Shown: positions 8,553 to 47,095 of the stretch, piece after piece
Layout of the letters: each line of letters opens with the position of its first letter
Position numbering within the stretch: position 1 is the first letter of the stretch
Assembly: GCA_965662845.1 (NCBI GenBank)
Contig: CBFIJD010000015.1
Location: 1 to 64,000, forward strand
Origin: an uncultured bacterium
Lineage (GTDB): Bacteria; SAR324; NAC60-12
Length of the DNA stretch: 64,000 nt
Direction of reading: 5' to 3'
Translations under genes and position numbers: made by a program
The notes under the pieces: generated by a model
The model's input: the letters and a program-made list of their open reading frames with translations, nothing else
What the model was told of the DNA's origin: nothing
The model's database searches: none

Positions 8553-9872
8553 ATGAACAACCGAAATCCAATTTTTGTCGTGGATGACGAGCCGGGCATC
8601 CGGAGTACGTTGGAAGGCGTGCTCGAAGACGAGGGCTACACGGTCGTGACGTGCGCAGACGCCACAGAATTTGCCTCCGCCAGTGCCGCACAGAGCCCGT
8701 CCCTCGTTTTGCTCGATATCTGGCTGCCTGGCGAAGACGGAATGGCGATCTTGAAACGCCTCCGTGCTGAGCGGCCAGAGCTACCGGTCATTATGATGAG
8801 CGGCCACGCAGGGATTGAATCCGCCGTGAACGCGATCAAATTGGGAGCACGAGACTTCTTAGAGAAGCCGCTACATCTGGATGTCTTGCTCGACAAAGTC
8901 GCGGGAGCGCTCAAATCGGCAGAGAAAAGCTCCGAGTCAGAGCTGCCATCCGATACACGCATTGAAACCGCGAGGTATCAGCCGGTCGTCAACGCGCAAG
9001 CCGTGGAGTTGGTGACGACCTCTGAGCGTCAAAAGACCCTGCAAGGCAACGTCGTGCTCAATGGGACAGGGCTTCTCAGCGGACGAAACACAGGGATCAT
9101 CCTGAGTCCTGCGGAACCCAACACAGGGATCGTCTTTCATACTCTAGGCGGCACGAGCATCCCCGGGCGCATCAACTGCTTAGAGAACTATCAGCAATCC
9201 CAAAATCAACAGAGCTTTACGGCGAACTCGACCGTGCTCGCGCGCGACAGCCGCCGAGTCCGCACCGTTGAGCACCTCATGGCCGCGATTTCGATGGCTG
9301 GTTTGCACAATGTGCAGATCAAAGCAGACGAAGAGATTCCCAACATTGATGGCTCAGCGTTAGACTTTGCGAAGCTGATTGAAGAGGCCGGAGTCGTGGA
9401 GCAAGACGCGCCGTTGACAGTCGCAGTGGTGCGAGAAAAGCTGGGTGTGGGCACGGAAGATCCGGAGCAGAAATTTTTGTTTGTGGAGCCATTTGACGGC
9501 TTTGAAGTGCAAATGCGCGTCAACTACCCGCCGCCAATTTCGGAGCAGCAGCTCACCTTCAACCCAGAGCAGCATCCATTTATAGAAGAGATTGCGCCGG
9601 CGCGCTCGTTCAATACGTTTCAGAACATCGACATGGCTCAGAAGATGGGGAAGGTGGGCAGCGGCTACTTGAACTCTCACATCATCATGCACGAAGGGAA
9701 GGTCATCAATACAGAGCTGCGGTTTGAAGACGAATTTGTGCGTCACAAAATTTTGGATTTGATTGGCGACTTATACTTGCTGGGCTATCCATTGCGCGGG
9801 CGCGTGGTCGCGAACATGACGTCTCATGGATACAACCAAGCGCTGGTGCAAAAGATGTGGAGCTGTCTGTGA
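8553..9872 (+). CDS. lpxC: Fusion of a response regulator receiver (NtrX-like) and UDP-3-O-acyl-GlcNAc deacetylase LpxC
   Basis: aa 1-120 REC (D11-D12, D55 in LLDIWLPG, S83, K105); C-terminal LpxC with QKTL, TVEHLMAA, PNIDGSA, HKILDLIGDL, SH. Confidence 0.92.
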   Translation: MNNRNPIFVVDDEPGIRSTLEGVLEDEGYTVVTCADATEFASASAAQSPSLVLLDIWLPGEDGMAILKRLRAERPELPVIMMSGHAGIESAVNAIKLGARDFLEKPLHLDVLLDKVAGALKSAEKSSESELPSDTRIETARYQPVVNAQAVELVTTSERQKTLQGNVVLNGTGLLSGRNTGIILSPAEPNTGIVFHTLGGTSIPGRINCLENYQQSQNQQSFTANSTVLARDSRRVRTVEHLMAAISMAGLHNVQIKADEEIPNIDGSALDFAKLIEEAGVVEQDAPLTVAVVREKLGVGTEDPEQKFLFVEPFDGFEVQMRVNYPPPISEQQLTFNPEQHPFIEEIAPARSFNTFQNIDMAQKMGKVGSGYLNSHIIMHEGKVINTELRFEDEFVRHKILDLIGDLYLLGYPLRGRVVANMTSHGYNQALVQKMWSCL

Positions 9873-9887
9873 GCGGCCACCGGTCGA

Positions 9888-12059
9888 TCAATACTGTGCC
9901 TTCGCGTAGTAGGTTTGGCGGGAGGCTTCTTGGGCCTCTTGAATGGTGTGGATGCCTTTCTCGGCGAGCATCGGGATCAGGTGGAGCATGATCTGACCCG
10001 TGACGCGGGCGTCTCCCAGCGCGGTGTGACGTCCCTCAATGCGTAAGTTCAGACGCCGTGAGATGCTCTCCAGGTCGTGCATCTCTTGGTTCGGGTGTAC
10101 CACTGCCGACAGCAAGAGCGTATCGAGCACGGGATTGCGGAATTTGACGCCCGTTTTGCGCTCTTTGAGCTGCAGAAAGCGCATGTCAAACGCGGCGTTG
10201 TGCGCGAGCAGCACGCTGTTCTCTGTGAACTGATAGAATTGAGGCAAGACTTTGTCGATGGTTGGTTGCCCTGCAAGCATGGAAGGCTGAATGCCATGGA
10301 TCTCAATCGACGCCGGAGAAATTTCGCGACGCGGATCAATCAACTGTTCGAAGGTTTCGTTTTCTAACAATTTGCCGTTCACAATGTGCATTGCGCCAAT
10401 CGAGATGATTTCGTCTCCACCCGAAGGGTTGAGCCCTGTCGTTTCGGTGTCAAACACGGTGTAGCTCACGTCCGCTAGCCGCGCGTTGGCGATCTCAGGG
10501 TCGGCAAGCTCTTTGTCGAAGAGATCAAAGTCGTAGAAGATCGGGCGGCCTCCCAAATACACGTGTGAGGTCGTGGCTCCTGCTGTGGGACGCTCCACGG
10601 CAGGAAACAACAGGCGCAGATAATGCTGCTGTGTGTCAGAGCTGCCCTCCAACCAAATCTCCACGTCGTGCCGACGACAAACCTCGGACAGAGTGATTGT
10701 TGAGTCTGCCGCCTCGGCGCGAATGGGATACTCTAGCCAACTTCTGAGCTGATCAGCCGCCAACGGCTCTCCCTCCCACGTCAAATCCACGACCGCAAAG
10801 TCAGAGTCAGCCGCGGCTCCCCCAGAGGGCGCGAACGGGGCGCGTCGAATCTCAATGATGTCTAGGCCCAAGGTCTGCTGCAACTGTTCAAACAAGAAGT
10901 AGAGCCCTTTGTTGAGCAAGAAGCGGTTCAGATCAGCGAATTGGTCGGGTTGCTCTTCCGCTTGGTAGCGAATGTGATACTTGGCAGAGGGATCGCTGTG
11001 GCGATAGAGATCGGTGAGCCAGTCGTGAATAGAGGTCGAGGTGAGCGGACAGAGGTGTTTTAGTTCACGAGAAGTATGCAGGTGCCGTTCGGACAAGAGA
11101 TCGGTGAGTTGAACCGTTTGGGATTGAATCATCTCCAAGAAGGCGTGCTGTTGTTGGGCGGGCATGTCGGGATAGTCCAGCATGGTCTCAACTGAGGCAC
11201 GAATGTTCGCGATGGCCGCGCGGCGCTGTTCAATGGTTTCTTGCTGCAACATGTTGAGCGGATGATTGGCCTGCGGTCGGGGGGTTTGATCTTCGCAAAC
11301 GAGGATGAACCCGCTCAGGTCATGATCTTGTCCTAATAGCCCCAGCAACTGCACACGCAACAGATGGGCGCCCTGCCAAAGCATAAAGGGTTGCACCAAG
11401 CTGGAGTTGCCCATCTGCTGTCGCTCACGCAGATCGTGCAGCGTATAGTCTAAGAGAGGCGCCTGTAGCGTGTTCTGAATCTGTTTTCCTAAGCCGAGCA
11501 ACGCGGAGTTGTTTTCGCTGCCTGCGGCGGGATTGAGCATCGTCTTCGCCGCACGATTGTAGAGCAGCACGACTCCGTCGCGATTACAGACCACAATGCC
11601 CTCTTGCAATTCTTCAATGAGCATGGCGAGGACGTTCTTTTCCCGCTCGACCTCTGCCTTGGCGTGCGAGATTTGCTCTTGGACTTGCTCTTGTGCGGCT
11701 GCGGTTTGTTCGGCGAGCCGATTGATGTGTCGCGCCAAATTGCTCACGGTGTTAGCGCCGTGCGGTTCAACGCGGTGTCGTAAATTGCCAGAAGACAAGA
11801 TTTGCGCTTCTTCACGCAATTGGGCCAGAGGAATCCAAAAACGATCCAGCAACCACTTGGATCCAGAGATCAAGACGACCACGAGGAGAACCAGCGGCGC
11901 GACCATGAAGAATTGATAGGGAAAAATCAGCGCGGCGACCTGTTGCCGATCTGCAGGCTCTAGTTGGTTATAGATGAGCACTTCCCACAGGCCGACCGTA
12001 GCGACCAGCAAGACGCTGCAGCCATACCACAGCATCGTTAGACGCGCTTTGGCTTTCAT
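9888..12059 (-). CDS. Membrane protein with HAMP, PAS-like and degenerate kinase-like region plus a C-terminal DEDDh (DnaQ-like) exonuclease
   Basis: Two N-terminal TMs; HAMP (PLAQLREEA..LARHINRLA); PAS start (EGIVVCNRDGVVLLYN); DTETTG, AHNAAFD, DTL, HTALGDA. Confidence 0.85.
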   Translation of the reverse strand: MKAKARLTMLWYGCSVLLVATVGLWEVLIYNQLEPADRQQVAALIFPYQFFMVAPLVLLVVVLISGSKWLLDRFWIPLAQLREEAQILSSGNLRHRVEPHGANTVSNLARHINRLAEQTAAAQEQVQEQISHAKAEVEREKNVLAMLIEELQEGIVVCNRDGVVLLYNRAAKTMLNPAAGSENNSALLGLGKQIQNTLQAPLLDYTLHDLRERQQMGNSSLVQPFMLWQGAHLLRVQLLGLLGQDHDLSGFILVCEDQTPRPQANHPLNMLQQETIEQRRAAIANIRASVETMLDYPDMPAQQQHAFLEMIQSQTVQLTDLLSERHLHTSRELKHLCPLTSTSIHDWLTDLYRHSDPSAKYHIRYQAEEQPDQFADLNRFLLNKGLYFLFEQLQQTLGLDIIEIRRAPFAPSGGAAADSDFAVVDLTWEGEPLAADQLRSWLEYPIRAEAADSTITLSEVCRRHDVEIWLEGSSDTQQHYLRLLFPAVERPTAGATTSHVYLGGRPIFYDFDLFDKELADPEIANARLADVSYTVFDTETTGLNPSGGDEIISIGAMHIVNGKLLENETFEQLIDPRREISPASIEIHGIQPSMLAGQPTIDKVLPQFYQFTENSVLLAHNAAFDMRFLQLKERKTGVKFRNPVLDTLLLSAVVHPNQEMHDLESISRRLNLRIEGRHTALGDARVTGQIMLHLIPMLAEKGIHTIQEAQEASRQTYYAKAQY

Positions 12060-12152: not shown

Positions 12153-12734
12153 TTATCGCGTAGAACGCAGAGGAGGAATGCGGGTGCCCGACGCGCTCTC
12201 AATCCACCAGCGTTCGAGCAGAACTCGCGGGTCAGGCGCGGGATTCGTGAAGCGGAGTTCTCCCCATTGCTTGGGCAACAACGTGGCTTCGTCAGGAAAA
12301 ATATGGAGCTGCTGCTCGACGCGCGCGGCTGCTCGGGTCGGGTCCCAGAATTGGAGCCCTAAGGTCACGCGAGAGATGTTCCAGTCGGGGGTGCCATTGC
12401 GTAAGCGGAACTCTAGCTCGCCGCCAAACTCTTGTAGCAGCTCGCCGCCAATTTGGGCGATCGCGTGATTCGGGAGCGCTTGCGCTGGACGTGAGGTGGG
12501 GAAGGCGCTGCTCTCAGCGGAGTCGCTCTCTGCAAATTTTTTGCGGCAGGCGTCCAAAATGGCTTGGGCGGCGATGTCGCTTTGCACGCCTTTCATGTGG
12601 TTCAAAATACAGTCTTCATACGTGCCGTGAGCGGCGTTGCCGAGCACTCCCGCGAGGGGGAGCAGCTGGGCGGTCGCGGTGAGCGCGCCGAGCACCATTC
12701 CACAAAGCAACCCAAGTAAAAACCGAGCGAACAT
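12153..12734 (-). CDS. Secreted hypothetical protein with a two-Cys helical motif
   Basis: Signal peptide; YEDCILNHMKGVQSDIAAQAILDACRKKF motif (resembles the VF_A0006-type motif from memory). Confidence 0.6.
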   Translation of the reverse strand: MFARFLLGLLCGMVLGALTATAQLLPLAGVLGNAAHGTYEDCILNHMKGVQSDIAAQAILDACRKKFAESDSAESSAFPTSRPAQALPNHAIAQIGGELLQEFGGELEFRLRNGTPDWNISRVTLGLQFWDPTRAAARVEQQLHIFPDEATLLPKQWGELRFTNPAPDPRVLLERWWIESASGTRIPPLRSTR

Positions 12735-31391: not shown

Positions 31392-33530
31392 GTGACTAAC
31401 AAAACGGATCGTAAATGGTCGCGCTTTCTGTCGCTGTGGCGAGAGAACCGCAACCTGCGACGCGAGCACAACCAACTGCAACAAGAGCAGCTGCGTAAGC
31501 TTACAGAGGTGCAAGCGTTGATGGAGCGAGACGCGGCCCACCCTCCTTCTGTAGGCGAGGCAACAGAAGCGACTCCTCCCCCGCAAGACAAGCTCGCAGC
31601 GGAACAGCCCCCCTCAGACCCCTCCCCGATTGCCGAAGACCCCCTGCTGGGGAGCGCGCCTCCCTCCACAGCGACGGTCAGCCACGAGGCACCAGACGCC
31701 CGCGCTCAACGGATCGTGAAACTCGGCTATTGGACGTATGACGCCTCCACATCCATCTTTGAAGGGAACCCCCAGCACTTCCGTAATCATGGCCTCGATG
31801 AGCTGTTGAGCGCAGTGACGCTCCCTGCGTGGTTGCGGGTGATCAGCAGCGAGGATCGTTCACGAGTCGGAGAGAAGTTCAGCAAGGCGATCGAATACGC
31901 CTCACCCGCCACCCTAGAATACCAGACCGAGAATCAGCGCGCTGTGCGACTCGAGATGCAACCGGATGGCTTTAACGAAGAGGGACGCTGCCGGCTGTTT
32001 GGGACGTCGCAAGATGTGACAGAGCTGCGCATGGGCGAGCGCATGTATCGCCAGATCACACAGCGCTTTTATCTGGTCAAGCAAGCGATTCGCATCGGGA
32101 CGTGGGAGTGGACTCCACAAAATGACCATTTTTACCGAGACCGTGAAGCGGATGAGCTGCTGGGCGTCGAACAGGCGAGCCAAGGCGCCACCCTTGACGC
32201 GCTGCTCGAACGACTGGAAGCCTCCGAAGCCAAACAACTGCGAGCGCGTTGGGACGCGGCACTGCGCTCTAAAAGTCGCTTTGACGCAGAATTCAGCCTG
32301 CCCACTGGCGATCACCAACGTCGCTACTTGCGCCTAGAAGGCACCGTCGAGGTCGACAAAACGCAGCAGCTCAAGCGGGTGGTGGGCATCCTGCTAGATG
32401 TCACTCGTCAGAAACAGGCAGAAACTCAACTGCAACGGGATGAAGCCTTTCGCAAAGAGGCGCAGAGAATGGCGCGCATCGCCGGTTGGGGCTGGAACCT
32501 TCACACCAACGAGTTTTTCTGCACAGAAGAACTGTACGAAATTTTCAGCTTCTCCACAGAAAGCGCGCTGAGCCCTGAAATGCTGGAACAGCGGATCCAC
32601 GCGAATGATCGCTCCAAATTTACCGAAGCGCTGCGCCAAGCCACCGAAGATTGCAGTCGCTTTGAGGTGGGCTTTCGTGTGCCACATGAAGACGGCTCCG
32701 TCTCGCATTTGGTCGCGTTGGGGCGGGTGCTGGCCCACAATGGGGTCGCCCAAGAAGTGTGGGGCGCGATGCAAGACGTGACGGAGAGCAAGCGGCTGGA
32801 GTCGCAGCTCTTGCGCTCCGAGAAGCTACAGTCGCTAGGAACCCTCGCCGCGAACACAGGACACGAACTCAAAAACCCGCTCGCTGTGATTCGGACTCAG
32901 CTGGAGATGATGGAAATCTTCTTGGAGATGGAAAATTACGAGCGCATTCCAAAGTTGTTGCAAATTGCGAATGAACAAACTCTGCGCGCCGCGAGCATCA
33001 TCGACAGCATGCGGGTGCTCGCTTGGGATGAACTCAACAAAGAATACACGCCCGTGTTGCTGCGCCAAGTCCTTGACCGCAGCTTGCTGCGCCGCCAGCG
33101 AGAGTTTGAAGAGCAGCAAGTCCAGCTCACTCGGTGCCTGAACGGTGTGGAGGTCGAAGACTACCAAGCTCTCAACGAGATGGTGAAAGGCAACTTCACC
33201 CAGCTAGAGCAAGTGATGAGCAACCTGATGAGCAACGCTCTGGATGCGATGAAACACTCAAAAGTCCGTGAGCTGCACTTGCACGTCACCGTGAAGCCGA
33301 GCCGGATCGTCTTGTCGCTGCGAGATACGGGGTGCGGCGTCACCGAAGAACATCTAGGAAAGATCTTTGACCCGTTCTTCACAACGAAGCCTCCCAAAGA
33401 AGGCATCGGGCTCGGGCTCGCGGTTTGTCTCGCGGTCGTGACCCAACACGGCGGCGATCTGGAAGTCGAGAGCCAACCGCAGCAAGGCTGCACCTTCCAC
33501 CTCAACCTCCCCCTCTGGAAAGCTGGCTGA
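31392..33530 (+). CDS. Cytoplasmic multi-PAS sensor histidine kinase
   Basis: Three PAS/PAC repeats (LGYWTYD, IGTWEW, AGWGWN; QDVTE ends); HELKNPL, NLMSNA, DTGCG, FFTTKP..EGIGLGL; exact start uncertain. Confidence 0.9.
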   Translation: MTNKTDRKWSRFLSLWRENRNLRREHNQLQQEQLRKLTEVQALMERDAAHPPSVGEATEATPPPQDKLAAEQPPSDPSPIAEDPLLGSAPPSTATVSHEAPDARAQRIVKLGYWTYDASTSIFEGNPQHFRNHGLDELLSAVTLPAWLRVISSEDRSRVGEKFSKAIEYASPATLEYQTENQRAVRLEMQPDGFNEEGRCRLFGTSQDVTELRMGERMYRQITQRFYLVKQAIRIGTWEWTPQNDHFYRDREADELLGVEQASQGATLDALLERLEASEAKQLRARWDAALRSKSRFDAEFSLPTGDHQRRYLRLEGTVEVDKTQQLKRVVGILLDVTRQKQAETQLQRDEAFRKEAQRMARIAGWGWNLHTNEFFCTEELYEIFSFSTESALSPEMLEQRIHANDRSKFTEALRQATEDCSRFEVGFRVPHEDGSVSHLVALGRVLAHNGVAQEVWGAMQDVTESKRLESQLLRSEKLQSLGTLAANTGHELKNPLAVIRTQLEMMEIFLEMENYERIPKLLQIANEQTLRAASIIDSMRVLAWDELNKEYTPVLLRQVLDRSLLRRQREFEEQQVQLTRCLNGVEVEDYQALNEMVKGNFTQLEQVMSNLMSNALDAMKHSKVRELHLHVTVKPSRIVLSLRDTGCGVTEEHLGKIFDPFFTTKPPKEGIGLGLAVCLAVVTQHGGDLEVESQPQQGCTFHLNLPLWKAG

Positions 33531-33679
33531 CTCTGCGGCGCCCCTTCGTCTTCTTCTCCGACACGCCTCGCTCGCTGGCTAATCAAACACTAACAATCCT
33601 TCCTTATCTTCCTGCCCCTTCGTGGCTCTTTTCGTTGCCGTGTGCGTGACGGTGACAGACTCCTTCCTTCCCTAAAAGC

Positions 33680-34768
33680 GTGGACATGCTGCCTCCTCTC
33701 ACTGTGCTGTGTGTGGATGACGAGAAATCGATCCTTGACACCCTGCAAGATCAACTTCGCTATGCCTTTGCACAAGAGATTCAAATTGAGATTGCCGAGA
33801 GCGGAGAAGAAGCCTTGGAAGTCGCCGCCGAAGTGGAAGAGGAACAAGGACACTTGGGGCTGGTGATTTCGGATTACATCATGCCGGGCCTCAAGGGAGA
33901 CGAGCTGCTCATTCAGCTGCACGAACGCTTTCCCCAAACTCGCAAGATCATGCTCACCGGACAAAGTTCGCTGGAGGCCGTCGGAAACTCGGTCAATCGA
34001 GCCGCCCTATATCGCTATCTCACCAAGCCTTGGGAAGCCGAAGACCTGCTCCTCACAGTCCGCTCTGCGCTCTTAGGGTTTCGACGAGACAAAGAACTCG
34101 AGAGTAAGATCTTGGCGTTTGAGAAGTTCTTGCCCCGCTCTTTTCTGAACATGCTCGGCGTGCGCGACTACGAAGACATGGCCCGCAGCCAAGGTCGCGA
34201 GCGCACGATGACGATCTTGTTTTGCGACATCCGCTCGTTTACGTCGCTTTCGGAGGGCATGTCGGCGCAGCAGGCCTTTGACTTTGTGAACGCGTATCTC
34301 GCGGTGATGGGCCCCGCGATTCGCACGCAAGGCGGCGTTGTCGACAAATATATCGGAGACGGCATCATGGCGCTGTTTGAGAACGCCGATGACGGACTGA
34401 ACGCAGCGCTCGCGATGCAGGATGCTTTGAAAAACTTCAATTTGCAGCGCATCCAAGCGTTTGAACCCGCTATCAGCATTGGGATTGGCTTGAACACAGG
34501 GCCCGTCATTCTGGGGACCATTGGCGAGAGCGGGCGCTTGCAGACAACGGTTTTGGGAGACCATGTCAACTTAGCGAGCCGCGTGGAGAGCATGACGAAG
34601 AACTTTGAAGCTTCGATTCTCCTCACGGAAAGCACGTGGAACGAGGTGTCTCGTCCAGAGCTCTATCGCGTACAGCCGCTGGCGCGCGTGCATGTGACCG
34701 GGCGCAAAAGTGCGGTGATGCTGTTTGATCTGCAGGGGCGCATGGAGAGTCATGATTCGCGCGTTTGA
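33680..34768 (+). CDS. Receiver domain fused to a class III adenylate cyclase
   Basis: REC (VDDE, ISDYIMP, LTG, KPW); FCDIRSFT, DKYIGDGIMA, TVLGDHVNLASRVE. Confidence 0.93.
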   Translation: MDMLPPLTVLCVDDEKSILDTLQDQLRYAFAQEIQIEIAESGEEALEVAAEVEEEQGHLGLVISDYIMPGLKGDELLIQLHERFPQTRKIMLTGQSSLEAVGNSVNRAALYRYLTKPWEAEDLLLTVRSALLGFRRDKELESKILAFEKFLPRSFLNMLGVRDYEDMARSQGRERTMTILFCDIRSFTSLSEGMSAQQAFDFVNAYLAVMGPAIRTQGGVVDKYIGDGIMALFENADDGLNAALAMQDALKNFNLQRIQAFEPAISIGIGLNTGPVILGTIGESGRLQTTVLGDHVNLASRVESMTKNFEASILLTESTWNEVSRPELYRVQPLARVHVTGRKSAVMLFDLQGRMESHDSRV

Positions 34769-36950
34769 CGCTCGTTATTCGCTCGCAGCGTATCTGCTCC
34801 GAGTCATTTTTGGCCTATATTTCTTGGTCGCGCTCTTGGTGACGCTGCTGCAGCTGTATGTGGAATATGCCGATGTCAAAGCTACCGTCCAGCGGGAGGT
34901 GGTGGCCTTGGAACCCATCTTTCGTCGTGGCCTGAGCGAGGCGATGTGGTCGGTGAACACCCTCCAACTCCAATCCATCACAGCGGGGATTTACCGGTTG
35001 CCTGTGGTGGTGGGACTCGAAGTCCGCAGCGAGGACGAGATCACAGCGGAGGGAAGACTCTTGGTGCAGCGAGGGCTCATTCGCTTACCATCAGGGGAGA
35101 CGCAGTGGCAGGAGTCCTTCCCAGTGGCAGATGCCATTGCTGATAGCGCGCTGATTGTGCACGAATTTCCGCTGATTTACGAATACGAAGGCACGTCGTA
35201 CCCGCTAGGCCGAGCGGTTTTTTATTCCAGTGAAGGGATTGTGTTTGAGCGGGTGCGCTACGGTTTTTTGCTGATTTTGGTGAACTCCTTCATCAAAACA
35301 GGCGTGTTGTGGTGCATCTTTCTGCTGGTGATTCGCAAAGTGTTGGGGCGCCCGCTCACCGCGCTGACGTCACGCGTACAACAGCTGGATCTGGACACGC
35401 TGGATGACGCGGAAGTCCGCGAGTTCTCCCAACGAGAAGATGAACTCAATCAGCTCGCGCGGGCCTATAACCGGATGATTGGGAAGATGCGCGCTTCTCG
35501 AGATCGGCAGTATGAAGTCGAGCAGAGTTTACGAGAGAAAGAAGCTCTGTTGGCGGAGTATTCCCGAGAACTCGAACGGCGCGTGGAGGCGCGCACGCTA
35601 GAATTGCGCCTCTCTCAGCAGAAGTTTCTCGTCGCGTTTCAACGCAGTCCACACCCGATTGTGATCCTCGACAACCAAGGCGTGTTCCTTGAGGCCAATC
35701 AAACGTTTTTTGAGTCTTCCGGCCTGCGCCCCGAACACATCGTCGGGCAGCGGATTGACGACTTAGGGATCTGGCGTGACCAGCGCCAGCGTGTGCAGGT
35801 GCTCCGCAAGTTGCGCGCTGAGAAGGGCTTCCGCAACCAAGAGGTGGACATTGTCTTAGAGCCCAATCAACCCCGGACGCTTTTGGTGTCAGCCGAGTCG
35901 ATGAAACTTGGGTGGTCTGATAACTCCAGCGCTGAGGTCTCTTATCTCGTGACATGGAGCGACATCACCGAGCGCAAGCAGACCGAGCGAGAGATCCTCG
36001 TCAGCGAAAAGATGGCTGCGCTCGGACAGCTGATCGCGGGAGTGGCGCACGAAATCAACAACCCGCTGGCCACGATCCGAGCTGCAGCCGAGAACATGAA
36101 CACCAACCTCCAAGAAGTCATCGACCGCTTCCCCATAGTGACGCGCACGCTGGCAGAAGACCGCTACGAGGGGTTCTTGGCGCTCCTGCACGAGGCGAGT
36201 CAGTCGCAGCCCCCGCTCTCTTCTCGCGAAGAGCGAAAACGTAAAAAAGCCCTGCGCGCAGCGCTACAAGAAGCGGGCGTCGAGGAGGCCGCGCCGAAGG
36301 CTGAAGCTCTCTGCAACGCAGGACTCTACGCACCAACGCCAGCGCAGCTTCAGTTGCTCGACGACCCCTCGTGGCGCGACATCATCGGGCTGGCTTACAA
36401 CCTCTCGCGACAGCAGCAAAACAGCCACAACGTCCGCGAGGCGGTTGAGCGCGCTGCAGGCATTGTGATGGCGCTGAAGAAATACTCCCACCAAGGCGGC
36501 CTCGGTGAGCGCACGTCGACCTCTGTGCAAGACACACTAGAGACCGTGCTGACGCTGCATCACAACCAACTCAAACGCGGTGTTGAGGTGACCCGGCACT
36601 TTGCGGCAGACGTCCCCACGATTCAGGCCTTCCCGAACGAACTCATTCAAGTGTGGACGAACCTCATCCAAAACGCGCTCCATGCCATGGAAGGACGCGG
36701 CATCCTAGAGGTCGGCGTCCACCGCCAAGGCGACGAGCTAGTGGTGGAGATCACCGACAACGGACCAGGCGTCCCCGCAGCCCTTCAGGAGCGGATCTTT
36801 GAGCCGTTTTTTACCACCAAGCCCATGGGCGAAGGCTCCGGGCTGGGCCTCGATATCGTCCGCAAAATCATTGAGCGTCACCAAGGACGTCTCACTCTGG
36901 AGAGCGTGCCCGGGCGTACGCGATTTTCTGTGCACCTGCCTATTTCTTGA
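34752..36950 (+). CDS. Membrane sensor histidine kinase (TM, periplasmic domain, TM, HAMP, PAS, HisKA, HATPase)
   Basis: HEINNPL, VWTNLIQNA, DNGPG, FFTTKPMGEGSGLGL. Confidence 0.92.
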   Translation: MIRAFDARYSLAAYLLRVIFGLYFLVALLVTLLQLYVEYADVKATVQREVVALEPIFRRGLSEAMWSVNTLQLQSITAGIYRLPVVVGLEVRSEDEITAEGRLLVQRGLIRLPSGETQWQESFPVADAIADSALIVHEFPLIYEYEGTSYPLGRAVFYSSEGIVFERVRYGFLLILVNSFIKTGVLWCIFLLVIRKVLGRPLTALTSRVQQLDLDTLDDAEVREFSQREDELNQLARAYNRMIGKMRASRDRQYEVEQSLREKEALLAEYSRELERRVEARTLELRLSQQKFLVAFQRSPHPIVILDNQGVFLEANQTFFESSGLRPEHIVGQRIDDLGIWRDQRQRVQVLRKLRAEKGFRNQEVDIVLEPNQPRTLLVSAESMKLGWSDNSSAEVSYLVTWSDITERKQTEREILVSEKMAALGQLIAGVAHEINNPLATIRAAAENMNTNLQEVIDRFPIVTRTLAEDRYEGFLALLHEASQSQPPLSSREERKRKKALRAALQEAGVEEAAPKAEALCNAGLYAPTPAQLQLLDDPSWRDIIGLAYNLSRQQQNSHNVREAVERAAGIVMALKKYSHQGGLGERTSTSVQDTLETVLTLHHNQLKRGVEVTRHFAADVPTIQAFPNELIQVWTNLIQNALHAMEGRGILEVGVHRQGDELVVEITDNGPGVPAALQERIFEPFFTTKPMGEGSGLGLDIVRKIIERHQGRLTLESVPGRTRFSVHLPIS

Positions 36951-36959
36951 GGAACTCTC

Positions 36960-37349
36960 ATGGAACGGATCATTCTGTGTGTCGATGACGAGAAGATGAT
37001 TCTGGATACGCTGCGAGAACAACTGATGAGCGCCTTCGGAGGACGGTTTGGTTACGAGACCGCCGAGAGCGCGGAAGAAGCCTTAGAGCTTGTCGAAGAG
37101 CTGCTCGAAGAAGAAGAAGTCGCCCTTGTGCTGATCATCTCCGACTGGCTCATGGACGGCATGAAAGGTGACGAGCTGCTGGTGCGCGTGCACAAGCTCA
37201 CGCCGGCTTCTGTCAAAATCATGTTGACCGGACAGGCCGATGAATCTGCCGTCGAGATCGCCCGCGAGAAAGGCGGGATGAGCGCTTGCCTCGGCAAACC
37301 GTGGAACAAAGATGAACTCTTCAACCTGATTGAACGCAGCTTGAGCTGA
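36960..37349 (+). CDS. Single-domain response regulator
   Basis: LCVDDE, ISDWLM, MLTGQ, KPW; GAGG RBS. Confidence 0.92.
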   Translation: MERIILCVDDEKMILDTLREQLMSAFGGRFGYETAESAEEALELVEELLEEEEVALVLIISDWLMDGMKGDELLVRVHKLTPASVKIMLTGQADESAVEIAREKGGMSACLGKPWNKDELFNLIERSLS

Positions 37350-37409
37350 CTCCGGCGTTTCTCCTTGAACCGACTCGGGCCCATCCCGCGTCCTGATGCG
37401 ATGAGACTC

Positions 37410-38525
37410 ATGCAGCCCATCATTCTCTGTGTAGACGACGAACGAACGATTCTGGACAGCCTGCGCGACCAGATTGGTCACAGCCTCCAGCCGTATTTTC
37501 AGATTGAAATTGCCGAGAGCGGACAAGAAGCCCTTGAGGTGCTGGAAGAACTGAATCAAGAAGGGGAAGTGGTGCTGGCGATCTCGGATTACATCATGCC
37601 ACACATGCGCGGAGATGAGTTTTTGATTCGGCTCGCGGAGCAGTCTCCAAGGACGGTGCAGGTCATGCTGACCGGACAAGCCGACGCAGAAGCCGTGGGA
37701 CGAGCCGTCAATCAAGCGAGCTTATATCGCTATATGTCAAAACCGTGGAATCGTGGCGAGCTGGAGGCGACGGTGCTGGCGGCCGCCGCGATTTACTACC
37801 AGAACAAACGACTGGAAGAAGCAGAAGCGCAAGCGATTCACGCGGCGCGTTTGGCTGGGATCGGAGAGGTGGCGGCGAGTGTTGCCCACGATGTGAAAAA
37901 TCCATTGGGTGTCATTCAGCTGATCATTGAACACCAGTTGCGCATGCCGGAGGTCGATCGCAAGGAGTTAGAGAAGGTTCTCCAGCTAGTCGAGAAGTGC
38001 AACCGCATCTTGCAGCAAATTCTGAAAATGAGCCGCAAGTATGAAGACGAACCCTTCCAAGTGGAGCACTCGCTCAATCAAATTCTCAGTGACTCCTTCC
38101 TCTTGCTCGGCAAGAGCTTGCAGCTGGGAGGAATCACGATCACACGCGAACTCGCCTCAGAGTTGCCCCCGATTCGTTGTCGCGCCGCCCAGCTGGAGCA
38201 AGTGTTTGTGAACCTGCTGAGCAACGCGCGCGACGCAATGGAGCACAGCGCAAACCGAGAACTGACGGTGCGTACCTATCGCGAGAACAGCGCTCTTGTG
38301 GCAGAGGTCGCCGACACCGGCTGTGGTATTCCTGCAGACAAGCTAGACAAGATCTTTGAGTCGTTCTACACCACAAAGTCTTCCGGCAAAGGCACCGGTT
38401 TGGGCATGGCCATCAGCCGGCGCATTGTCGAAGAGCACGGCGGCCAACTCACCGTCGAGAGTCAAATCAACCAAGGAACCTGCTTCCGCGTTCGCCTCCC
38501 GATCTCTCGCATGACCCCCGCATGA
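37410..38525 (+). CDS. Hybrid REC-histidine kinase
   Basis: REC (VDDE, SDYIMP, KPW); HDVKNPL, NLLSNA, DTGCG, GTGLG. Confidence 0.92.
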   Translation: MQPIILCVDDERTILDSLRDQIGHSLQPYFQIEIAESGQEALEVLEELNQEGEVVLAISDYIMPHMRGDEFLIRLAEQSPRTVQVMLTGQADAEAVGRAVNQASLYRYMSKPWNRGELEATVLAAAAIYYQNKRLEEAEAQAIHAARLAGIGEVAASVAHDVKNPLGVIQLIIEHQLRMPEVDRKELEKVLQLVEKCNRILQQILKMSRKYEDEPFQVEHSLNQILSDSFLLLGKSLQLGGITITRELASELPPIRCRAAQLEQVFVNLLSNARDAMEHSANRELTVRTYRENSALVAEVADTGCGIPADKLDKIFESFYTTKSSGKGTGLGMAISRRIVEEHGGQLTVESQINQGTCFRVRLPISRMTPA

Positions 38526-41410
38526 AACTCTTGCGATTGCTCCGACATGCAACCTGTCACCACACCGCGAGCTCCCTCAACTTATGGGTGATCCCGCTGG
38601 TGCTGGCATATTTGATTGTTGTGCAATTGTGGGAAGAAGAACTCAATCGACAGCGCCGCACAGACACATTTCTCATCAAAAGCTACCGCGCCTTGAATCA
38701 ACTGACTGAGGTGCTGCCGACACAAACGGACTGGGACAATAAGAAGCGTGTCGCAGAAGTCATGAAGCTGGTCCTGCTAGACCCTGACTTTGAGTTGATC
38801 GTTGTGCAGCATGCCGATCGGCCCTTGGAATATCACGCGCGCGCGCTGCGAAACGAACGCAGTGTTCAGCGTATTCACGCCAGCCCCAAGCAGTTTGGGC
38901 TGGAGGCCAACACGCTGCGCTGGGCGCTGAATGCACAAGATGTCGTCGTGATTCACATCTATGGCTACACGCACTCGATGACCCAAGGGACCGCCCCTGA
39001 GATTCTCTACGCGCCGTTTTTGCTGCTTCTCATTGGAGTCATTAACTTTCGGGTGGTGCATCTGAGAGTGCGCAAAAGCATGGACTTGTTGCAGGAACAA
39101 CTCGGGCGGCCGATGGAACCCGGAGCAACCCTCCCGTCGATCCTGAGTCGCGACGCCGAGATCAAAGACTTCGCAGAAGATTTTCTGTATCGAAACATTC
39201 GGGTGCAGCGTCAGTTGCGTTACGCCGAAGTCCTCAATCGTGCGGCCTCAGAGCTCTCCAACACCGCCGAACAAACGGAGCTGAGTCAAACCCTCTTTGA
39301 GAGTCTCCGTCGGTTGTTGCCGGTTGAGCGTTGCGCCATCTTTTTGTGGGACGCAGAAACAGAGCGATTACACCTGCGCTCGGTGCATCCGCATCAGGGG
39401 GAGTCGCTGCAAGGGCTGCCCAGTTTTGAGGTTGGTCACTCTCTCATTGGTTTGGTCGCCAAGCAACGCCGCACGCTCTTTATTCCAGACTCTTCCAAAG
39501 ACATCCGCTTTTTGCAGGAGAATCCGCTGAGCAACCCGCCGCGCTCTGTGCTCTTTGTTCCGATGATGGACGAACAAGAGCTGTATGGCGTGATGAGCGT
39601 CGCCGGCCCAGTAGGCGAGCTAGAGTATGCGAAAGAAGACCGCAACTTTGTGCTGGCACTGGCTCGGTTCGCCGTCTCTCGTCTGCGTAATCTTCGGCAG
39701 TTAGAAACGATTGAGGACTACAGTCGCACCCTTGAGCAAAAGGTCATCAAGCGCACCGAGCAGTTGCAGCAGGAGAAGCTGCTCTCAGAAGCGCTGGCGA
39801 TGCGAGAACGAGAGGCGCGCCGTGTCGTTCAGGAGCTGTTGGACAACAGCGGAGAAGGCTTTCTCTCTTTTGATGCCCAGTTCAAAATTTGGCCCGAATA
39901 CTCGCGAGCATGTGAGACGTTCTTGGGGCCGGAATTGGCGGGCAAGGATGCGCTAGAGGCGCTGTTCGGCCACTTGCATGCTCCCGAAACTGACCTCACC
40001 GAAGATGTGCCGGATTTGATGACGTTGCGCCAGATGCTAGATTTGGTCTTTACGGGCGCCGGCAAGCTGAAGCAGTTTCGCGCATTTTTTCCGCGCGAGG
40101 TGCAATATGGCGAGCGCACCGCGACGCTGCATTACTATACGATTCGGCGGCGGCGGCGTACCGAGCGCATTTTGGTCGTGATCCATGACATCACGCGCGA
40201 GAAGCAGCTCCGCAAGCAGATGGATCAAGACGAAGAGCGCACCCAGCTCATTCTCAAGGCGTTCAGTGAACGAGAGCTGTTTTTTGAGTTTGTGAAGGAA
40301 CAAAACCGGCTCTTCACCTCCATCCAAAAACTCTTGCAGCCGCCCTTAGAACAAAAGCAAGTCCACAGCCTGATCATCCAATTTCATACGATCAAAGGAA
40401 ACTCGTCGTATTACGGCATGCGGCGGGTGAGCGAGCAAGCGCACCAAACGGAGACGTTCTTGGAAGAACAGATCGCGCAAGTCGATCGCTTGGGAGACGC
40501 TGCGGTTCATGAAGTGCGCAAACGCCTGAAGCAGATTCAGCAAGACTATCAGGCGTATTTAGACGAGCTGCAGAAGCTCATGCCAGAAGATTCTACGGAT
40601 GAATCGCAGCGCCAGATTCGGTTGCACGAGTCAGTGGTGGAGCGCTGGCACGAAGGACTCGCCTATGTGCTCATCGACAAGCCGTTTGAGATGATGCAAG
40701 CCGAAGTCGGCACTCAAGAAGAGATGTCGGAATGGCGGACCGCGTTGCGTCAAATGCAGCAATACCACCATGACTTGTTGCAGCAGGCAGTGGAGTTTTT
40801 GGTGCTGCAACCGATTGAGCCCTACTTCCGCAAGTTTGAAAACATCGCGCGGACAGTCGCCAAAAAATTGGGGAAAGAAGTCCAAGTCGAAGTTCGTGGC
40901 AGCGAGACTCGCATTCCCTACGCCCGTTGGTCCTCGGTTCTTGGAGCGCTGGTGCACGTGGTCAACAACTTGGTCGACCATGGCATCGAAGAAGCGACCG
41001 TCCGAGAACGCTATGGCAAGCGCCCAGAGGGGAGCTTACGTTTTGGTGCCGAACAAGTGTATGGCGCCGTCGCGCTCCAGTTTGCCGATGACGGACGCGG
41101 CATTGATCCCAACCGCATCGGACAACTCGCGCTAGAGCGTGGCATCATCGAAGAGCCGTTTCTCCGCAACGCGACCGAGCAAGAGATTGTGGAGTTGATC
41201 TTCCTGCCCGGTTTCTCTTCTCGCAAAGACGAGGTCTCGGAGACGTCTGGTCGAGGGGTTGGTTTGGAGGCTGTCCGCCAGGCCGTGTTGGCTCTCAACG
41301 GCACGATTCACATCCATAGCGAGGTTGGTAGCGGGACGCGCTTTGAGATGAAAATTCCGGTCGCAAATCAGTTTGCTCGCCGAATTGAAGAAGCACGACG
41401 ATCTCACTAG
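38522..41410 (+). CDS. Membrane CheA-like kinase (TM, GAF, PAS-like, Hpt, HATPase) with no CheW domain
   Basis: GAF (LIGLVAKQRRTL.IPD...D.RF, RSVLFVPM); Hpt FHTIKGNS; HVVNNLVDHGIE, DDGRGID, IFLPGFSS, SGRGVGL. Confidence 0.88.
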   Translation: MKLLRLLRHATCHHTASSLNLWVIPLVLAYLIVVQLWEEELNRQRRTDTFLIKSYRALNQLTEVLPTQTDWDNKKRVAEVMKLVLLDPDFELIVVQHADRPLEYHARALRNERSVQRIHASPKQFGLEANTLRWALNAQDVVVIHIYGYTHSMTQGTAPEILYAPFLLLLIGVINFRVVHLRVRKSMDLLQEQLGRPMEPGATLPSILSRDAEIKDFAEDFLYRNIRVQRQLRYAEVLNRAASELSNTAEQTELSQTLFESLRRLLPVERCAIFLWDAETERLHLRSVHPHQGESLQGLPSFEVGHSLIGLVAKQRRTLFIPDSSKDIRFLQENPLSNPPRSVLFVPMMDEQELYGVMSVAGPVGELEYAKEDRNFVLALARFAVSRLRNLRQLETIEDYSRTLEQKVIKRTEQLQQEKLLSEALAMREREARRVVQELLDNSGEGFLSFDAQFKIWPEYSRACETFLGPELAGKDALEALFGHLHAPETDLTEDVPDLMTLRQMLDLVFTGAGKLKQFRAFFPREVQYGERTATLHYYTIRRRRRTERILVVIHDITREKQLRKQMDQDEERTQLILKAFSERELFFEFVKEQNRLFTSIQKLLQPPLEQKQVHSLIIQFHTIKGNSSYYGMRRVSEQAHQTETFLEEQIAQVDRLGDAAVHEVRKRLKQIQQDYQAYLDELQKLMPEDSTDESQRQIRLHESVVERWHEGLAYVLIDKPFEMMQAEVGTQEEMSEWRTALRQMQQYHHDLLQQAVEFLVLQPIEPYFRKFENIARTVAKKLGKEVQVEVRGSETRIPYARWSSVLGALVHVVNNLVDHGIEEATVRERYGKRPEGSLRFGAEQVYGAVALQFADDGRGIDPNRIGQLALERGIIEEPFLRNATEQEIVELIFLPGFSSRKDEVSETSGRGVGLEAVRQAVLALNGTIHIHSEVGSGTRFEMKIPVANQFARRIEEARRSH

Positions 41411-41499: not shown

Positions 41500-42780
41500 A
41501 TGAGCGCATTTTATGCAGTGTCAGAGCTGGCAGTCCTGAGCGAGCGCGGCATTCAAGTTTTGCAGCCGGAGTTGACGTCCATTCGTCGGGATGTCGACCT
41601 CAACCGCATCGCGAGTGGTGTCGTGATGCATCCCTTCACCCGGATCAGCGGGTCTGAAACCGCGATTGGCGCCAACGCTGAGCTGGGTTTGCATGGCCCT
41701 GTGACCCTTGAAAACAGCGTCGTTGGGCCTGACTCTGTGATTGGTGCGCAGGGCCCTGTGAGTTTGTGCGACACGTGGACGGGGCCGCGCACTGTGCTGG
41801 GGATGGGTACGGCAGAACAAGCGGTCTTTTTGGGACGAGAGCACGGCGCCGCGCCGCCGACTGCGGGGGTTGGGTTTCGGGTGCGCAAAGGGAGCCTTTA
41901 TGAAGAAGGCGCGTGCTCGGCGCAGCACACCGACACCAAGATGACGATCTTGTTGCCGTGGGCGACTCTGGGCAGCAATCTCAACTTCTGTGACGTGCTC
42001 CTGGCAGGAGGAATCGGCGATCAACCGGGACAGTTCAGTGAAGTGGGCAGCGGGACGATTCACTTCAACTTCACGATTCGTGGCGACAAAGCTACGGCGT
42101 CCTTGCTAGGGGACGTGGTGCAGGGGGTCTTTCTGCGGTCTGATCGACTCTTTATCGGAGGGAACAACAGTCTACTCGGGCCGTTGCAAGGTGAGTATGG
42201 TGCGTTTTCAGCAGCAGGCGCTCGGTTGGGAGGCAGCATGAGCCGGGGCTTGAATTTGGGGCAGCCGATGCCGTCGGGGCATGTCGCGTATGACGCGCGG
42301 TCGTTTCCTCAGCTGCGTCGAGTGGTGCATGCGCAGTTGCGTTTTTTGGGCGAACTCACCGCGTTGTTTCACTGGTATGGTCAAGTGCGCATCCCGCTGC
42401 TGGCATACGACGAGTCGCGTAGCGCTCTTTACAAGCAAGCCCAAGAGCTGGTGCGTCGGAATATCCAAGAGCGCATTGCGCAACTCGACGTGTTGACTCA
42501 GCTGGTGAGAGGAGGCGAGGTGCAAAGTCGCGAGGCGCTCTCGGAGGCATTGCTTGCATATCAGCGCAACTGGCTGGAACATTGGCCGGCGTTGCAAGCC
42601 CATCTGCAAAGCTTTGCGGACGAGGCACCCGAAGTCCCCGAAGTCTTAGCGCGCGAGCTGAGCACCGCGAGCGGCAACTACACCGCAGTGATTCAGTCTC
42701 TCTCTGATGCAGCCGTCCAAGCGGGAACCGACTGGCTGGAGCGCATTGCACAAGAAATTCGTGAAGGAGAACAAGCATGA
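41500..42780 (+). CDS. GlmU-related left-handed beta-helix (acetyltransferase-like) protein
   Basis: Hexapeptide-like repeats; TLGSNLNFCD.LLAGG, SEVGSG.IHFNFT..GDKAT; no GxGxR pyrophosphorylase motif. Confidence 0.65.
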   Translation: MSAFYAVSELAVLSERGIQVLQPELTSIRRDVDLNRIASGVVMHPFTRISGSETAIGANAELGLHGPVTLENSVVGPDSVIGAQGPVSLCDTWTGPRTVLGMGTAEQAVFLGREHGAAPPTAGVGFRVRKGSLYEEGACSAQHTDTKMTILLPWATLGSNLNFCDVLLAGGIGDQPGQFSEVGSGTIHFNFTIRGDKATASLLGDVVQGVFLRSDRLFIGGNNSLLGPLQGEYGAFSAAGARLGGSMSRGLNLGQPMPSGHVAYDARSFPQLRRVVHAQLRFLGELTALFHWYGQVRIPLLAYDESRSALYKQAQELVRRNIQERIAQLDVLTQLVRGGEVQSREALSEALLAYQRNWLEHWPALQAHLQSFADEAPEVPEVLARELSTASGNYTAVIQSLSDAAVQAGTDWLERIAQEIREGEQA

Positions 42781-46006: not shown

Positions 46007-47095
46007 GTGAATCTCTCGCATCTGACGCCCCCGTGGACGTGGAAATCTGCGCTGTGGCGCAGCCCGCTCTGGGCCCTCGCTTTCGTCTATGAAGCGCTGT
46101 TGCTGCTGCGCTTGTTCCTCTACCAACGCAAGATTTTGCCAACCCATCGTCCAGCAGCGCCTGTGATTGCCGTGGGGAACCTGACCGTCGGTGGAACCGG
46201 CAAGACGCCGGTCATCGAGCTGTTGGCGCGCACGCTTCAGGCAGAGCAACGCAAGGTTGTCATCTTGAGTCGTGGATATGGCCGGCGCTCTTTGGCGACC
46301 TTTCAGCGGTTTCAGGCGGCAACAGCGCCGTTTCCGCTTTCGCCCAAGTGTCTGGGAGACGAACCATTTTGGCTCGCGCAGCGTAATCCAGAAATCCCGA
46401 TCTATGTGGGCGGTTCGCGTACGAAGACCGCGCGTTGGGCTCAAGCGCGAGATCAGCCGGATGTGCTCTTGCTAGACGACGCGTTTCAACACGTCGCGGT
46501 TGCGCGAGACTTGAATCTGCTGCTGATTGACGCAGAGCGTGGCTTAGGAAACCGCCAGGTCTTGCCGTTGGGCGAGCTGCGAGAGCCCGAACATCATTGG
46601 AAGCGTGCTGACGCCATCTTGCTGACCAAGGCGAACTTAGGATTCGCCGAAGGCTGGACGCATCGTCTGCGCAAAGAACTCGACGTGAACATTCCAATCT
46701 TTCGTTGTGACTATTCGCCCGCGCGTTTGCGACGCTTAGATGGGCAAGCCACGATGGAATGCGCTGCGTTGCGATCAAAATCGGTGTTTGCTAGCTGCGG
46801 TATCGCACAGCCAGACGGGTTTGCGCGCGTCGTGGAGCCGCTGTGCGGCGCATGGAAGGAGCTCTCCGCGTGGCCAGACCATCAGGCTTACACCGCGGAG
46901 GATGTGCAGCGTCTGTTGTGGCTCTTTCGCAAAAGTCGTGCGCAGATCTGGCTGACGACCGAGAAAGATGCCGTCAAACTCGCCGCCTTTTCTGAATTAC
47001 AAGAGCAAGTCTGGGCCGTGGAAATGGAGGTGCGTCCGGAGCCCGCTTGGCAAGAATTCCTAATTGATTTTCTGAGAAAATATCCCGTACAGTAG
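46007..47095 (+). CDS. lpxK: Tetraacyldisaccharide 4'-kinase
   Basis: VGNLTVGGTGKTP, LSRGYG, GDEP, LDDAFQH, LPLGELRE, TTEKDAVK. Confidence 0.96.
   Translation: MNLSHLTPPWTWKSALWRSPLWALAFVYEALLLLRLFLYQRKILPTHRPAAPVIAVGNLTVGGTGKTPVIELLARTLQAEQRKVVILSRGYGRRSLATFQRFQAATAPFPLSPKCLGDEPFWLAQRNPEIPIYVGGSRTKTARWAQARDQPDVLLLDDAFQHVAVARDLNLLLIDAERGLGNRQVLPLGELREPEHHWKRADAILLTKANLGFAEGWTHRLRKELDVNIPIFRCDYSPARLRRLDGQATMECAALRSKSVFASCGIAQPDGFARVVEPLCGAWKELSAWPDHQAYTAEDVQRLLWLFRKSRAQIWLTTEKDAVKLAAFSELQEQVWAVEMEVRPEPAWQEFLIDFLRKYPVQ

Follow-up and report, generated by a model that had tools for sequence, protein, structure and literature searches.

We analyzed the first 64,000 nucleotides (nt) of contig CBFIJD010000015.1 (assembly GCA_965662845.1) from an uncultured SAR324 bacterium of the NAC60-12 lineage, a stretch hereafter called the window. 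A gene at positions 8553-9872 of its forward strand encodes a 439-residue protein in which a response-regulator receiver domain (REC) is joined through a linker to LpxC, the enzyme that commits the cell to lipid A synthesis for the outer membrane. The REC-LpxC protein is a true LpxC by sequence and fold, and the best reading of it is the cell's housekeeping LpxC carrying an NtrX receiver domain. In architecture it belongs to a known kind, response regulators whose output is an enzyme, and an effect of the receiver on the enzyme is predicted from sequence. We lean slightly toward the view that a transcriptional NtrY-NtrX-lpxC circuit has collapsed here into direct phospho-control of the enzyme; the comparisons below suggest that a membrane kinase controls LpxC directly, not via gene expression.

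Architecture and integrity of the gene

The reading frame runs through 8553-9872 with zero gaps and zero internal stops, and a purine-rich stretch lies 7 nt 5′ of its ATG. Pfam Response_reg (PF00072) covers residues 7-116 (E 1e-29, 103 bits against a cut-off of 30.2) and Pfam LpxC (PF03331) covers residues 160-436, profile positions 1-267 of 268 (E 1e-71, 242 bits against a cut-off of 27). The protein also passes the TIGR00325 lpxC equivalog, with 199 bits against a cut-off of 187. The features of the gene are as follows.

8553..9872, forward strand: whole gene REC-linker-LpxC (P0001), 439 aa
8553..8924, forward strand: NtrX-type receiver domain, residues 1-124 (PF00072, NCBIfam, tree, signature residues, structure match)
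8715..8717, forward strand: D55, predicted phosphoacceptor, kept in 188/188 full-length relatives
8925..9023, forward strand: linker, residues 125-157, with a conserved short motif at 131-138 (alignment, model confidence)
9024..9869, forward strand: LpxC deacetylase domain, residues 158-439 (Pfam, TIGR00325, structure match)
9270..9275, forward strand: E240-H241 (E. coli E78, H79), catalytic base and zinc ligand, 188/188 (alignment with E. coli LpxC)
9603..9686, forward strand: insertion II region, residues 351-378, remodeled (alignments)
9744..9758, forward strand: H398-K399-x-x-D402 (E. coli H238, K239, D242), zinc ligands, 188/188
9825..9827, forward strand: H425 (E. coli H265), catalytic histidine, 188/188

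The original prediction, made from the letters of the window, had described one gap-free frame of 439 residues holding a complete receiver, a linker of about 35 residues and a full LpxC, and it was right on each count, with a linker that measures about 33 residues in the model, from the end of helix 5 (residue 124) to about residue 157. The residues it had named (D11, D12, D55, S83 and K105 in the receiver, and the EH, HKILD and catalytic histidine of the enzyme at E240-H241, H398-K399-D402 and H425) also lie where it had placed them. The short linker motif is conserved among full-length relatives (L131 in 180/188, D134 in 182/188 and E138 in 179/188). An AlphaFold2 model built from 76 aligned relatives has a mean predicted local distance difference test (pLDDT) of 86.7, which falls below 50 at residues 124-137 in the linker. 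The LpxC part of the model superimposes on P. aeruginosa LpxC 5u39 over 268 residues (Z 38.2, root-mean-square deviation (rmsd) 1.4 Å), and the receiver superimposes on the Brucella NtrX receiver 4d6x (Z 22.1, rmsd 1.0 Å, 47% identity), with other receivers tying within 1 Z. The predicted template modeling score rose from 0.65 to 0.76 with a deeper alignment, which is not taken as evidence of a fixed domain arrangement, and a complex prediction of the receiver (1-124) with linker-LpxC (127-439) scored 0.00, which counts neither for nor against docking.

An assembly chimera was also weighed as a source of this architecture. Among the best 120 homologs, the query included, 119 have both Pfam domains at 98-100% coverage, and the remaining row is a 359-aa piece with LpxC only. 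The G+C content at third codon positions (GC3) is 0.67 in the receiver half and the LpxC half alike. At the level of contigs, the gene is spanned at depth 24 by two contigs of one sample, possibly the source, the REC-linker-LpxC joint (8800-9139) is bridged by a contig from a second sample of the same study, and the linker-LpxC joint (8960-9365) is bridged by a contig from another study. A chimeric join, for which we found nothing in favor, is ruled out by the architecture shared with 119/120 top homologs and with 42 related genomes and by these independent contigs; we give it practically no weight.

REC-LpxC is the only LpxC type found in its family

The source genome (G000) is 95% complete and belongs to a SAR324-like family (f1) of a phylum represented here by 88 genomes, including the sister families f2-f7. 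A search of G000 for the LpxC family returned a single match, the REC-LpxC gene, with no unfused second lpxC. The genome also encodes lpxA, lpxD, lpxB, fabZ, lpxK and waaA; a search for LpxI gave no match there. The fusion is present, and any other LpxC absent, in 42 of the 44 other f1 genomes, the two misses being 51% and 57% complete. It is the only LpxC type in 43 f1 genomes, G000 included. Each of the 43 genomes of f2-f7 has one LpxC in a frame of 283-406 aa, and the 20 fetched are all without a receiver. The fused gene precedes nusB in most inspected f1 genomes, a position expected of a long-resident gene. One f1 genome (G052) holds two full-length fused copies (L244, G052:C71, and L006, G052:C10), the second scoring lower on the LpxC profile (192 versus 240 bits). 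A later lipid A gene, lpxK (Pfam E 7e-84), lies in the same window at 46007-47095 on the forward strand.

The receiver descends from NtrX

The best NCBIfam match of the receiver is the NtrX model (NF051870). The whole-protein score is 114 bits against a cut-off of 600, and matches to the AAA+ and helix-turn-helix (HTH) parts are absent; by sequence, the protein is derived from NtrX and is not an NtrX. Seven residues (E13, I16, W57, G84, H85, A91 and E104) form a signature present in all 79 receivers of NtrX proteins encoded next to NtrY. The close fused receivers have I16, W57, G84, H85, A91 and E104 in 18/18 cases and E13 in 15/18, and W57 occurs in 0/25 other receivers of G000. In a FastTree phylogeny, all fused receivers fall among NtrX receivers and are separate from the other receivers of G000, with a support of 0.82 for this short domain; one row tagged NtrX by mistake grouped with the G000 receivers. 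The likeness to NtrX that had been proposed from motifs therefore stands on the top-scoring model, the tree placement and the shared signature residues.

The phosphorylation pocket is conserved in the 188 full-length relatives (D11 in 187, D12 in 186, and D55, S83, F102 and K105 in 188), as are W57, G84 and H85 (188/188 each). Column conservation is 0.78 in the receiver and 0.83 in LpxC. A genome scan gave 76 further loci among the receiver matches it listed, which are no census: an NtrY-like kinase is encoded directly 5′ of the matched receiver gene in 61/76, and 7 of the 76 also have lpxC. The gene order lpxC, DUF4390, ntrY, ntrX is found in Desulfotignum and in Acidobacteriota.

A single NtrY-type kinase without NtrX

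The original prediction saw no cognate kinase next to the gene and named two kinds of candidate, an NtrY-like kinase elsewhere in the genome or the kinases of the window. The former was found on contig C2 (P0272, G000:C2:69021-71270), after gatB-ccmC-ccmE and before a convergent cheB. P0272 is a membrane kinase with a HAMP-PAS-HisKA-HATPase architecture, its orthologs sit 5′ of ntrX, its comparison with NtrY gives 32% over 678 aa (E 7e-104), and its phospho-accepting histidine and the asparagine at H+4 are intact. On a profile of 134 NtrY phosphotransfer regions, it scores 117 bits, whereas the next kinase of G000 scores 27 and the four window kinases score 8-27, which rules out the window kinases as cognate partners. 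As judged by these sequences, P0272 is the only NtrY-type kinase of G000. The fused receiver is in turn the best NtrX-type receiver of that genome (123.6 versus 95.7 bits), and a one-to-one pairing of the two proteins is predicted because each is the only or top member of its type.

The ntrY gene is present in 45/45 f1 genomes, even in small ones with 5-7 receiver candidates, and ntrX directly follows it in 0/44 f1 loci, two of which end within about 200 bases of the gene. By comparison, ntrX directly follows ntrY in 36/38 loci of f2 and f5-f7, the exceptions being one at a contig end and one without ntrX. The absence of ntrX across f1 is one evolutionary event, not 44. When the NtrX receiver of a sister family served as query, the fused receiver was the best match in 42 of the 43 f1 genomes with a match. 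The exception and one strong second match lack the NtrX signature, and so do the second matches in G045 and G048. The other sigma-54 regulators of G000 (C2, C33) were rejected as NtrX by score and tree placement.

In most f1 genomes, ntrY follows the cytochrome c maturation genes gatB-ccmC-ccmE on the same strand, as in L113:6321-11271 (G000:C2). Brucella NtrY/X was reportedly termed a redox sensor in one study. Near-linkage of ntrY and the fused gene was seen in a single f1 genome (L184, G062:C7), where ntrY is upstream on the same strand at a distance of 4.2 kb, with three intervening genes. A search of G000 for DUF4390/PlrP gave no match, with a positive control that was silent too.

Long forms link the fusion to NtrX

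A profile search of 1.84 billion representatives returned proteins that join NtrX and LpxC more completely. The 63 scanned of the 150 listed matches contain at least 15 REC-AAA-LpxC proteins of 650-736 aa, at least five cut-off AAA-LpxC pieces, at least one REC-HTH-LpxC and at least 26 whole or partial REC-LpxC proteins. In a member of the Thermodesulfobacteriota (L078), a 734-aa REC-AAA-LpxC is encoded directly 3′ of ntrY and is the only LpxC of that genome. All 16 long forms examined have kept the receiver and lost three AAA+ motifs, namely the GAFTGA-type loop, Walker B acidic pair and arginine finger, the last two of which are retained in 5/6 control NtrX proteins.

An IQ-TREE phylogeny of 58 LpxC domains (LG+G4, rooted on E. 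coli) places all 41 receiver-bearing rows in one branch (100/100), apart from the f2-f7 canonical LpxC (100/92). In two places, short forms group with long ones (100/100 each), so the AAA+ part was lost more than once. The copies from f1, Desulfocapsaceae and Nitrospirota form one branch (100/99), and a larger FastTree run gave the same picture. Because the fused branch separates from the canonical LpxC of f2-f7, an incoming fused gene probably replaced the native lpxC in f1; these trees do not set the donor or the direction and order of the transfers.

The taxonomic spread of the fusion extends to Desulfocapsaceae and a family of Nitrospirota, each represented here by 61 genomes from incomplete assemblies. 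The fused type occurs in 19/61 Desulfocapsaceae genomes (10 checked as sequence, the others by score and frame length); canonical LpxC was not found in six carriers, and 13/61 genomes have both types. Between ntrY and hemB, ntrX is cleanly deleted in three carriers (G089, G155, G194); G157 retains a 92-aa stub of it, the copy of G202 is degenerate, and the locus of G211 ends at the contig. Such loss or decay was seen only among fusion carriers, and 40/42 non-carriers have an NtrX receiver, the two misses being fragmentary. A Fisher test (4/18 versus 0/40, p 0.007) ignores kinship and is not relied on. In the Nitrospirota family, 38/61 genomes have canonical LpxC, 38/61 have a fused receiver and 20/61 have both. 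A coupling of ntrX loss to fusion gain is unsupported there: regardless of LpxC type, ntrY and ntrX are unlinked in 30/30 loci, and 7/7 fetched genomes have, at another site, an NtrX-like gene that lacks W57. At these loci (L387-L393), the unlinked NtrX-like regulator lacks the Trp after the phospho-accepting Asp, a Trp that the fused receiver of the same family keeps. In three copies (G164, L385; G123, L394; G129, L343), a frame change separates the receiver from LpxC, and a copy in G104:C14 has a stop. The splits may be real fissions; that G104 also has a broken ntrY suggests assembly errors.

A conserved active site and a remodeled acyl passage

In LpxC, insertion II forms the acyl passage, T191 is critical or catalytic, H79, H238 and D242 bind zinc, and E78 and H265 are catalytic (PMC13333357). 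The residues E240, H241, H398, K399, D402, D406 and H425 are invariant in 188/188 full-length relatives, so the equivalents of E. coli E78, H79, H238, K239, D242, D246 and H265 are all kept. Insertion II is present and folded in the model, with polar or bulky replacements: S352, N354, T355, A362, Y372 and H376 stand for E. coli T191, G193, F194, L201, S211 and A215. Within the close clade, the substitutions H19L, L62N, I103N, T191S, G193N, F194T, L201A, S211Y, A215H, K262M and G264S (E. coli numbering) occur in 37-40 of 40 rows, unlike in 58 canonical rows. Other fused forms share part of this pattern, with S211 replaced by R or K, A215 by F or V, and K262 often by M. The T191 position is Ser in 183/188 relatives and Thr in 5/188, against Thr in 58/58 canonical rows, a conservative change. 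The alignment also shows 10 extra residues near insertion I, and the C-terminal tail of the E. coli enzyme is missing, the domain ending about 25 residues short of the E. coli LpxC end. Pfam LpxC scores are 237-257 bits for fused proteins and mostly 265-365 for canonical ones. For the remaining positions of the passage region, the roles, and in part the assignment of residues to its lining, are those that we presume for LpxC; a literature search on LpxC passage residues returned nothing. These passage-region changes may reflect a different acyl chain, a regulatory gate or another substrate. Neither this remodeling nor the descent from REC-AAA-LpxC fusions had been part of the original prediction.

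Surroundings of the gene

The REC-LpxC gene stands alone, divergent from genes for ABC-transporter ATPases and an enoyl-ACP reductase and convergent with a HAMP-exonuclease gene. The latter (9888-12059, reverse strand) encodes 723 aa with N-terminal membrane segments, HAMP and a C-terminal DEDDh exonuclease (Pfam RNase_T), and a 15-base gap separates it from the REC-LpxC gene. Between 8250 and 10100, we found neither a sigma-70 promoter match nor a terminator exceeding chance level. Farther along the window, a sensor kinase cluster (31392-41410, forward strand) includes a receiver-nucleotide cyclase protein (33680-34768), likewise a response regulator with enzymatic output. Two open reading frames lack a Pfam match (41500-42780, forward strand, 426 aa; 12153-12734, reverse strand, 193 aa).

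Discussion

The closest published circuit is that of Desulfovibrio. In D. vulgaris, lpxC is the single target of DVU2934, listed as ntrX (REC-AAA-DNA-binding domain) with the cognate kinase DVU2931 (PMC3333781) and listed elsewhere with an intact GAFTGA (PMC4641369), and the orthologous operon of Syntrophobacter has lpxC immediately upstream (PMC3333781). In D. alaskensis, where Dde_3003 is listed as ntrX, lpxC was the only strongly raised gene in a mutant of Dde_3000, a putative NtrY (PMC4045070), which indicates that the kinase lowers NtrX activity during growth. NtrY of C. crescentus is mainly a phosphatase (bioRxiv 2021.04.17.440287), and DUF4390/PlrP restrains an NtrY-type phosphatase whose activity requires the H+4 Asn (PMC13001219).

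We propose that P0272, an orphan membrane kinase/phosphatase of the NtrY type, determines whether D55 is phosphorylated and that this state would tune the deacetylase in cis, either by relief of auto-inhibition or through receiver-driven dimerization. Phosphorylation would thereby alter lipopolysaccharide (LPS) flux. The phosphorylated form would be the more active one if the Desulfovibrio logic holds, in which phosphorylated NtrX leads to more LpxC and NtrY holds it down; we regard this as the somewhat likelier sign, as a guess. The fusion would have arisen where lpxC lay beside an ntrY-ntrX operon and ntrX was fused to it, the AAA+ and DNA-binding part would then have decayed and been deleted repeatedly, and the short form would have spread, displacing both native lpxC and native ntrX in f1. 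The broader claim, that a transcriptional circuit was condensed into an allosteric switch acting on an essential enzyme and that this switch became fixed throughout a marine family and reached two other phyla, is in our judgment a little short of an even chance.

Several observations weigh against the proposed phospho-control. The case is one of sequence comparison. The passage is strongly altered, with T191 and K262 replaced, such that LpxC activity on the usual substrate would not be guaranteed. P0272 does not reach E 0.001 against Pfam NtrY_N (PF19312); deltaproteobacterial NtrY proteins encoded next to ntrX score 30-40 bits, a weak match. In f1, ntrY does not adjoin the fused gene, the smallest distance being the 4.2 kb of G062. 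Most Desulfocapsaceae carriers retain ntrX, and in one of them (G209) ntrX is intact even though the fusion is the only LpxC found. The Nitrospirota loci lend no support to coupling, and the canonical LpxC beside the fusion in that group makes a different role possible there. Finally, in an R. sphaeroides mutant, the lpxC transcript rose 8.8-fold and LPS doubled, an effect of NtrYX that is indirect (PMC7240162), and the sign is therefore not generalizable.

The same data were weighed under other readings. NtrY could set D55 phosphorylation while the receiver controls the abundance of LpxC, through protease recognition or folding, and not its catalysis. Receiver-type adaptors of proteolysis, RssB and CpdR, are known, and the linker is predicted to be disordered at 124-137. 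The E. coli C-terminal tail is missing and a LapB zinc ribbon was not found in G000 with a short and weak model, such that another degradation signal could be needed; control of LpxC is also classically by proteolysis (PMC13333357). We nevertheless consider this unlikely, as clade-wide active-site remodeling and a conserved linker motif better fit a catalytic change than a degradation tag. It is also conceivable that the receiver is a tether or a reporter that docks LpxC on membrane NtrY, or through which substrate occupancy feeds back on NtrY, with catalysis unswitched. The kinase-contact residues are as conserved as the phosphorylation pocket, and a suggestion that LpxC is localized at the membrane has been made for Neisseria Ght (PMC12444477). 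In f1, however, where ntrX is gone, NtrY has no other known output to report to, and the switch residues S83, F102 and K105 are all invariant, so we see only a slim prospect for this explanation.

In another reading, the substrate has changed, to an acyl chain that is short or linked differently or to a sugar nucleotide without an acyl group, and the step under regulation would then differ from the textbook lipid A reaction. The eleven clade substitutions from H19L to G264S, the lower Pfam scores and the coexistence with canonical LpxC in 20/61 Nitrospirota and 13/61 Desulfocapsaceae genomes would all fit it. It is hard to reconcile with an enzyme that is the only LpxC in 43 f1 genomes, in a source genome that retains lpxA, lpxD, lpxB, lpxK and waaA, and that keeps its zinc ligands and the equivalents of E78, H265, K239 and D246 invariant within a fold at an rmsd of 1.4 Å; we rate it as rather improbable. 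That the receiver is a mere passenger of an operon fusion, with no regulatory role, seems very improbable to us. A read-through fusion would be easy because lpxC adjoins ntrYX in several lineages (7 of the 76 listed loci), and three copies (G164, G123 and G129) are split, by real fission or by sequencing error. Yet the AAA+ part decays and is repeatedly deleted while the receiver pocket stays invariant, the receiver is nearly as conserved as LpxC, and ntrY is kept in small f1 genomes with few receivers.

Compared with known systems, REC-LpxC shares with Desulfovibrio NtrY/NtrX (DVU2931/DVU2934; Dde_3000/Dde_3003), a sigma-54 regulator system, the same players and the same target lpxC, a likeness drawn from published annotation, not from sequence. 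The Desulfovibrio NtrX is a REC-AAA-DNA-binding protein that acts at the lpxC promoter, whereas REC-LpxC has neither the AAA+ nor the DNA-binding part and carries the receiver within the enzyme. The NtrYX/PlrSR systems of alpha- and betaproteobacteria (Brucella, Rhodobacter, Caulobacter, Bordetella) have a like kinase architecture, phosphotransfer helix and envelope link, but in those systems NtrX is a transcription factor that controls a broad regulon and has no enzyme domain. Canonical LpxC proteins (E. coli, P. aeruginosa, A. aeolicus) have the same fold, zinc ligands, E78/H265 pair, K239 and D246, whereas REC-LpxC adds an N-terminal receiver, a linker and a 10-residue insertion, lacks the C-terminal tail and has a remodeled insertion II, T191S and K262M. 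The bifunctional LpxC-FabZ (PRK13188) is also an LpxC fusion, to which our protein is a partial match (167 versus a cut-off of 465); its partner is C-terminal and metabolic, with no signaling domain. Response regulators with enzymatic output include CheB, PleD-type REC-GGDEF proteins and REC-HD-GYP proteins. Like REC-LpxC, these enzyme-output regulators consist of a receiver, a short linker and a catalytic domain, the REC-HD-GYP type being treated in PMC4114195, but their output is a signaling enzyme and not a biosynthetic, probably essential, envelope enzyme. Control of canonical LpxC activity is by separate proteins, LapB and MurA, and here the receiver is in the same chain; a 2026 review describes direct control of LpxC activity as an emerging idea and names only these two (PMC13333357). 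The words fusion and fused are absent from that review and from another of 2025 (PMC12444477). A sequence search of the PDB found no REC-LpxC, and no published description of such a fusion was found in the accessible parts of a literature that excludes subscription papers and bioRxiv supplements.

From a biological perspective, what is new is an envelope-committing biosynthetic enzyme as the output of a response regulator, in what would be a documented transcriptional circuit collapsed into one protein. Control of LpxC output outside enterobacteria is largely open, and a receiver on LpxC would add a third mode, covalent and reversible. The finding also connects lipid A in several phyla with NtrYX, a system with a debated signal and core role: NtrX drives lpxC transcription in Desulfovibrio, neighbors lpxC in Acidobacteriota and Desulfobacterales, and is fused to LpxC here. 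The 439-aa protein and the cytoplasmic part of NtrY would make a two-protein system for LpxC allostery, with an enzymatic read-out for the NtrY signal. Finally, the altered passage leads one to expect unusual kinetics or an unusual lipid A in this marine group, which is abundant and uncultured.

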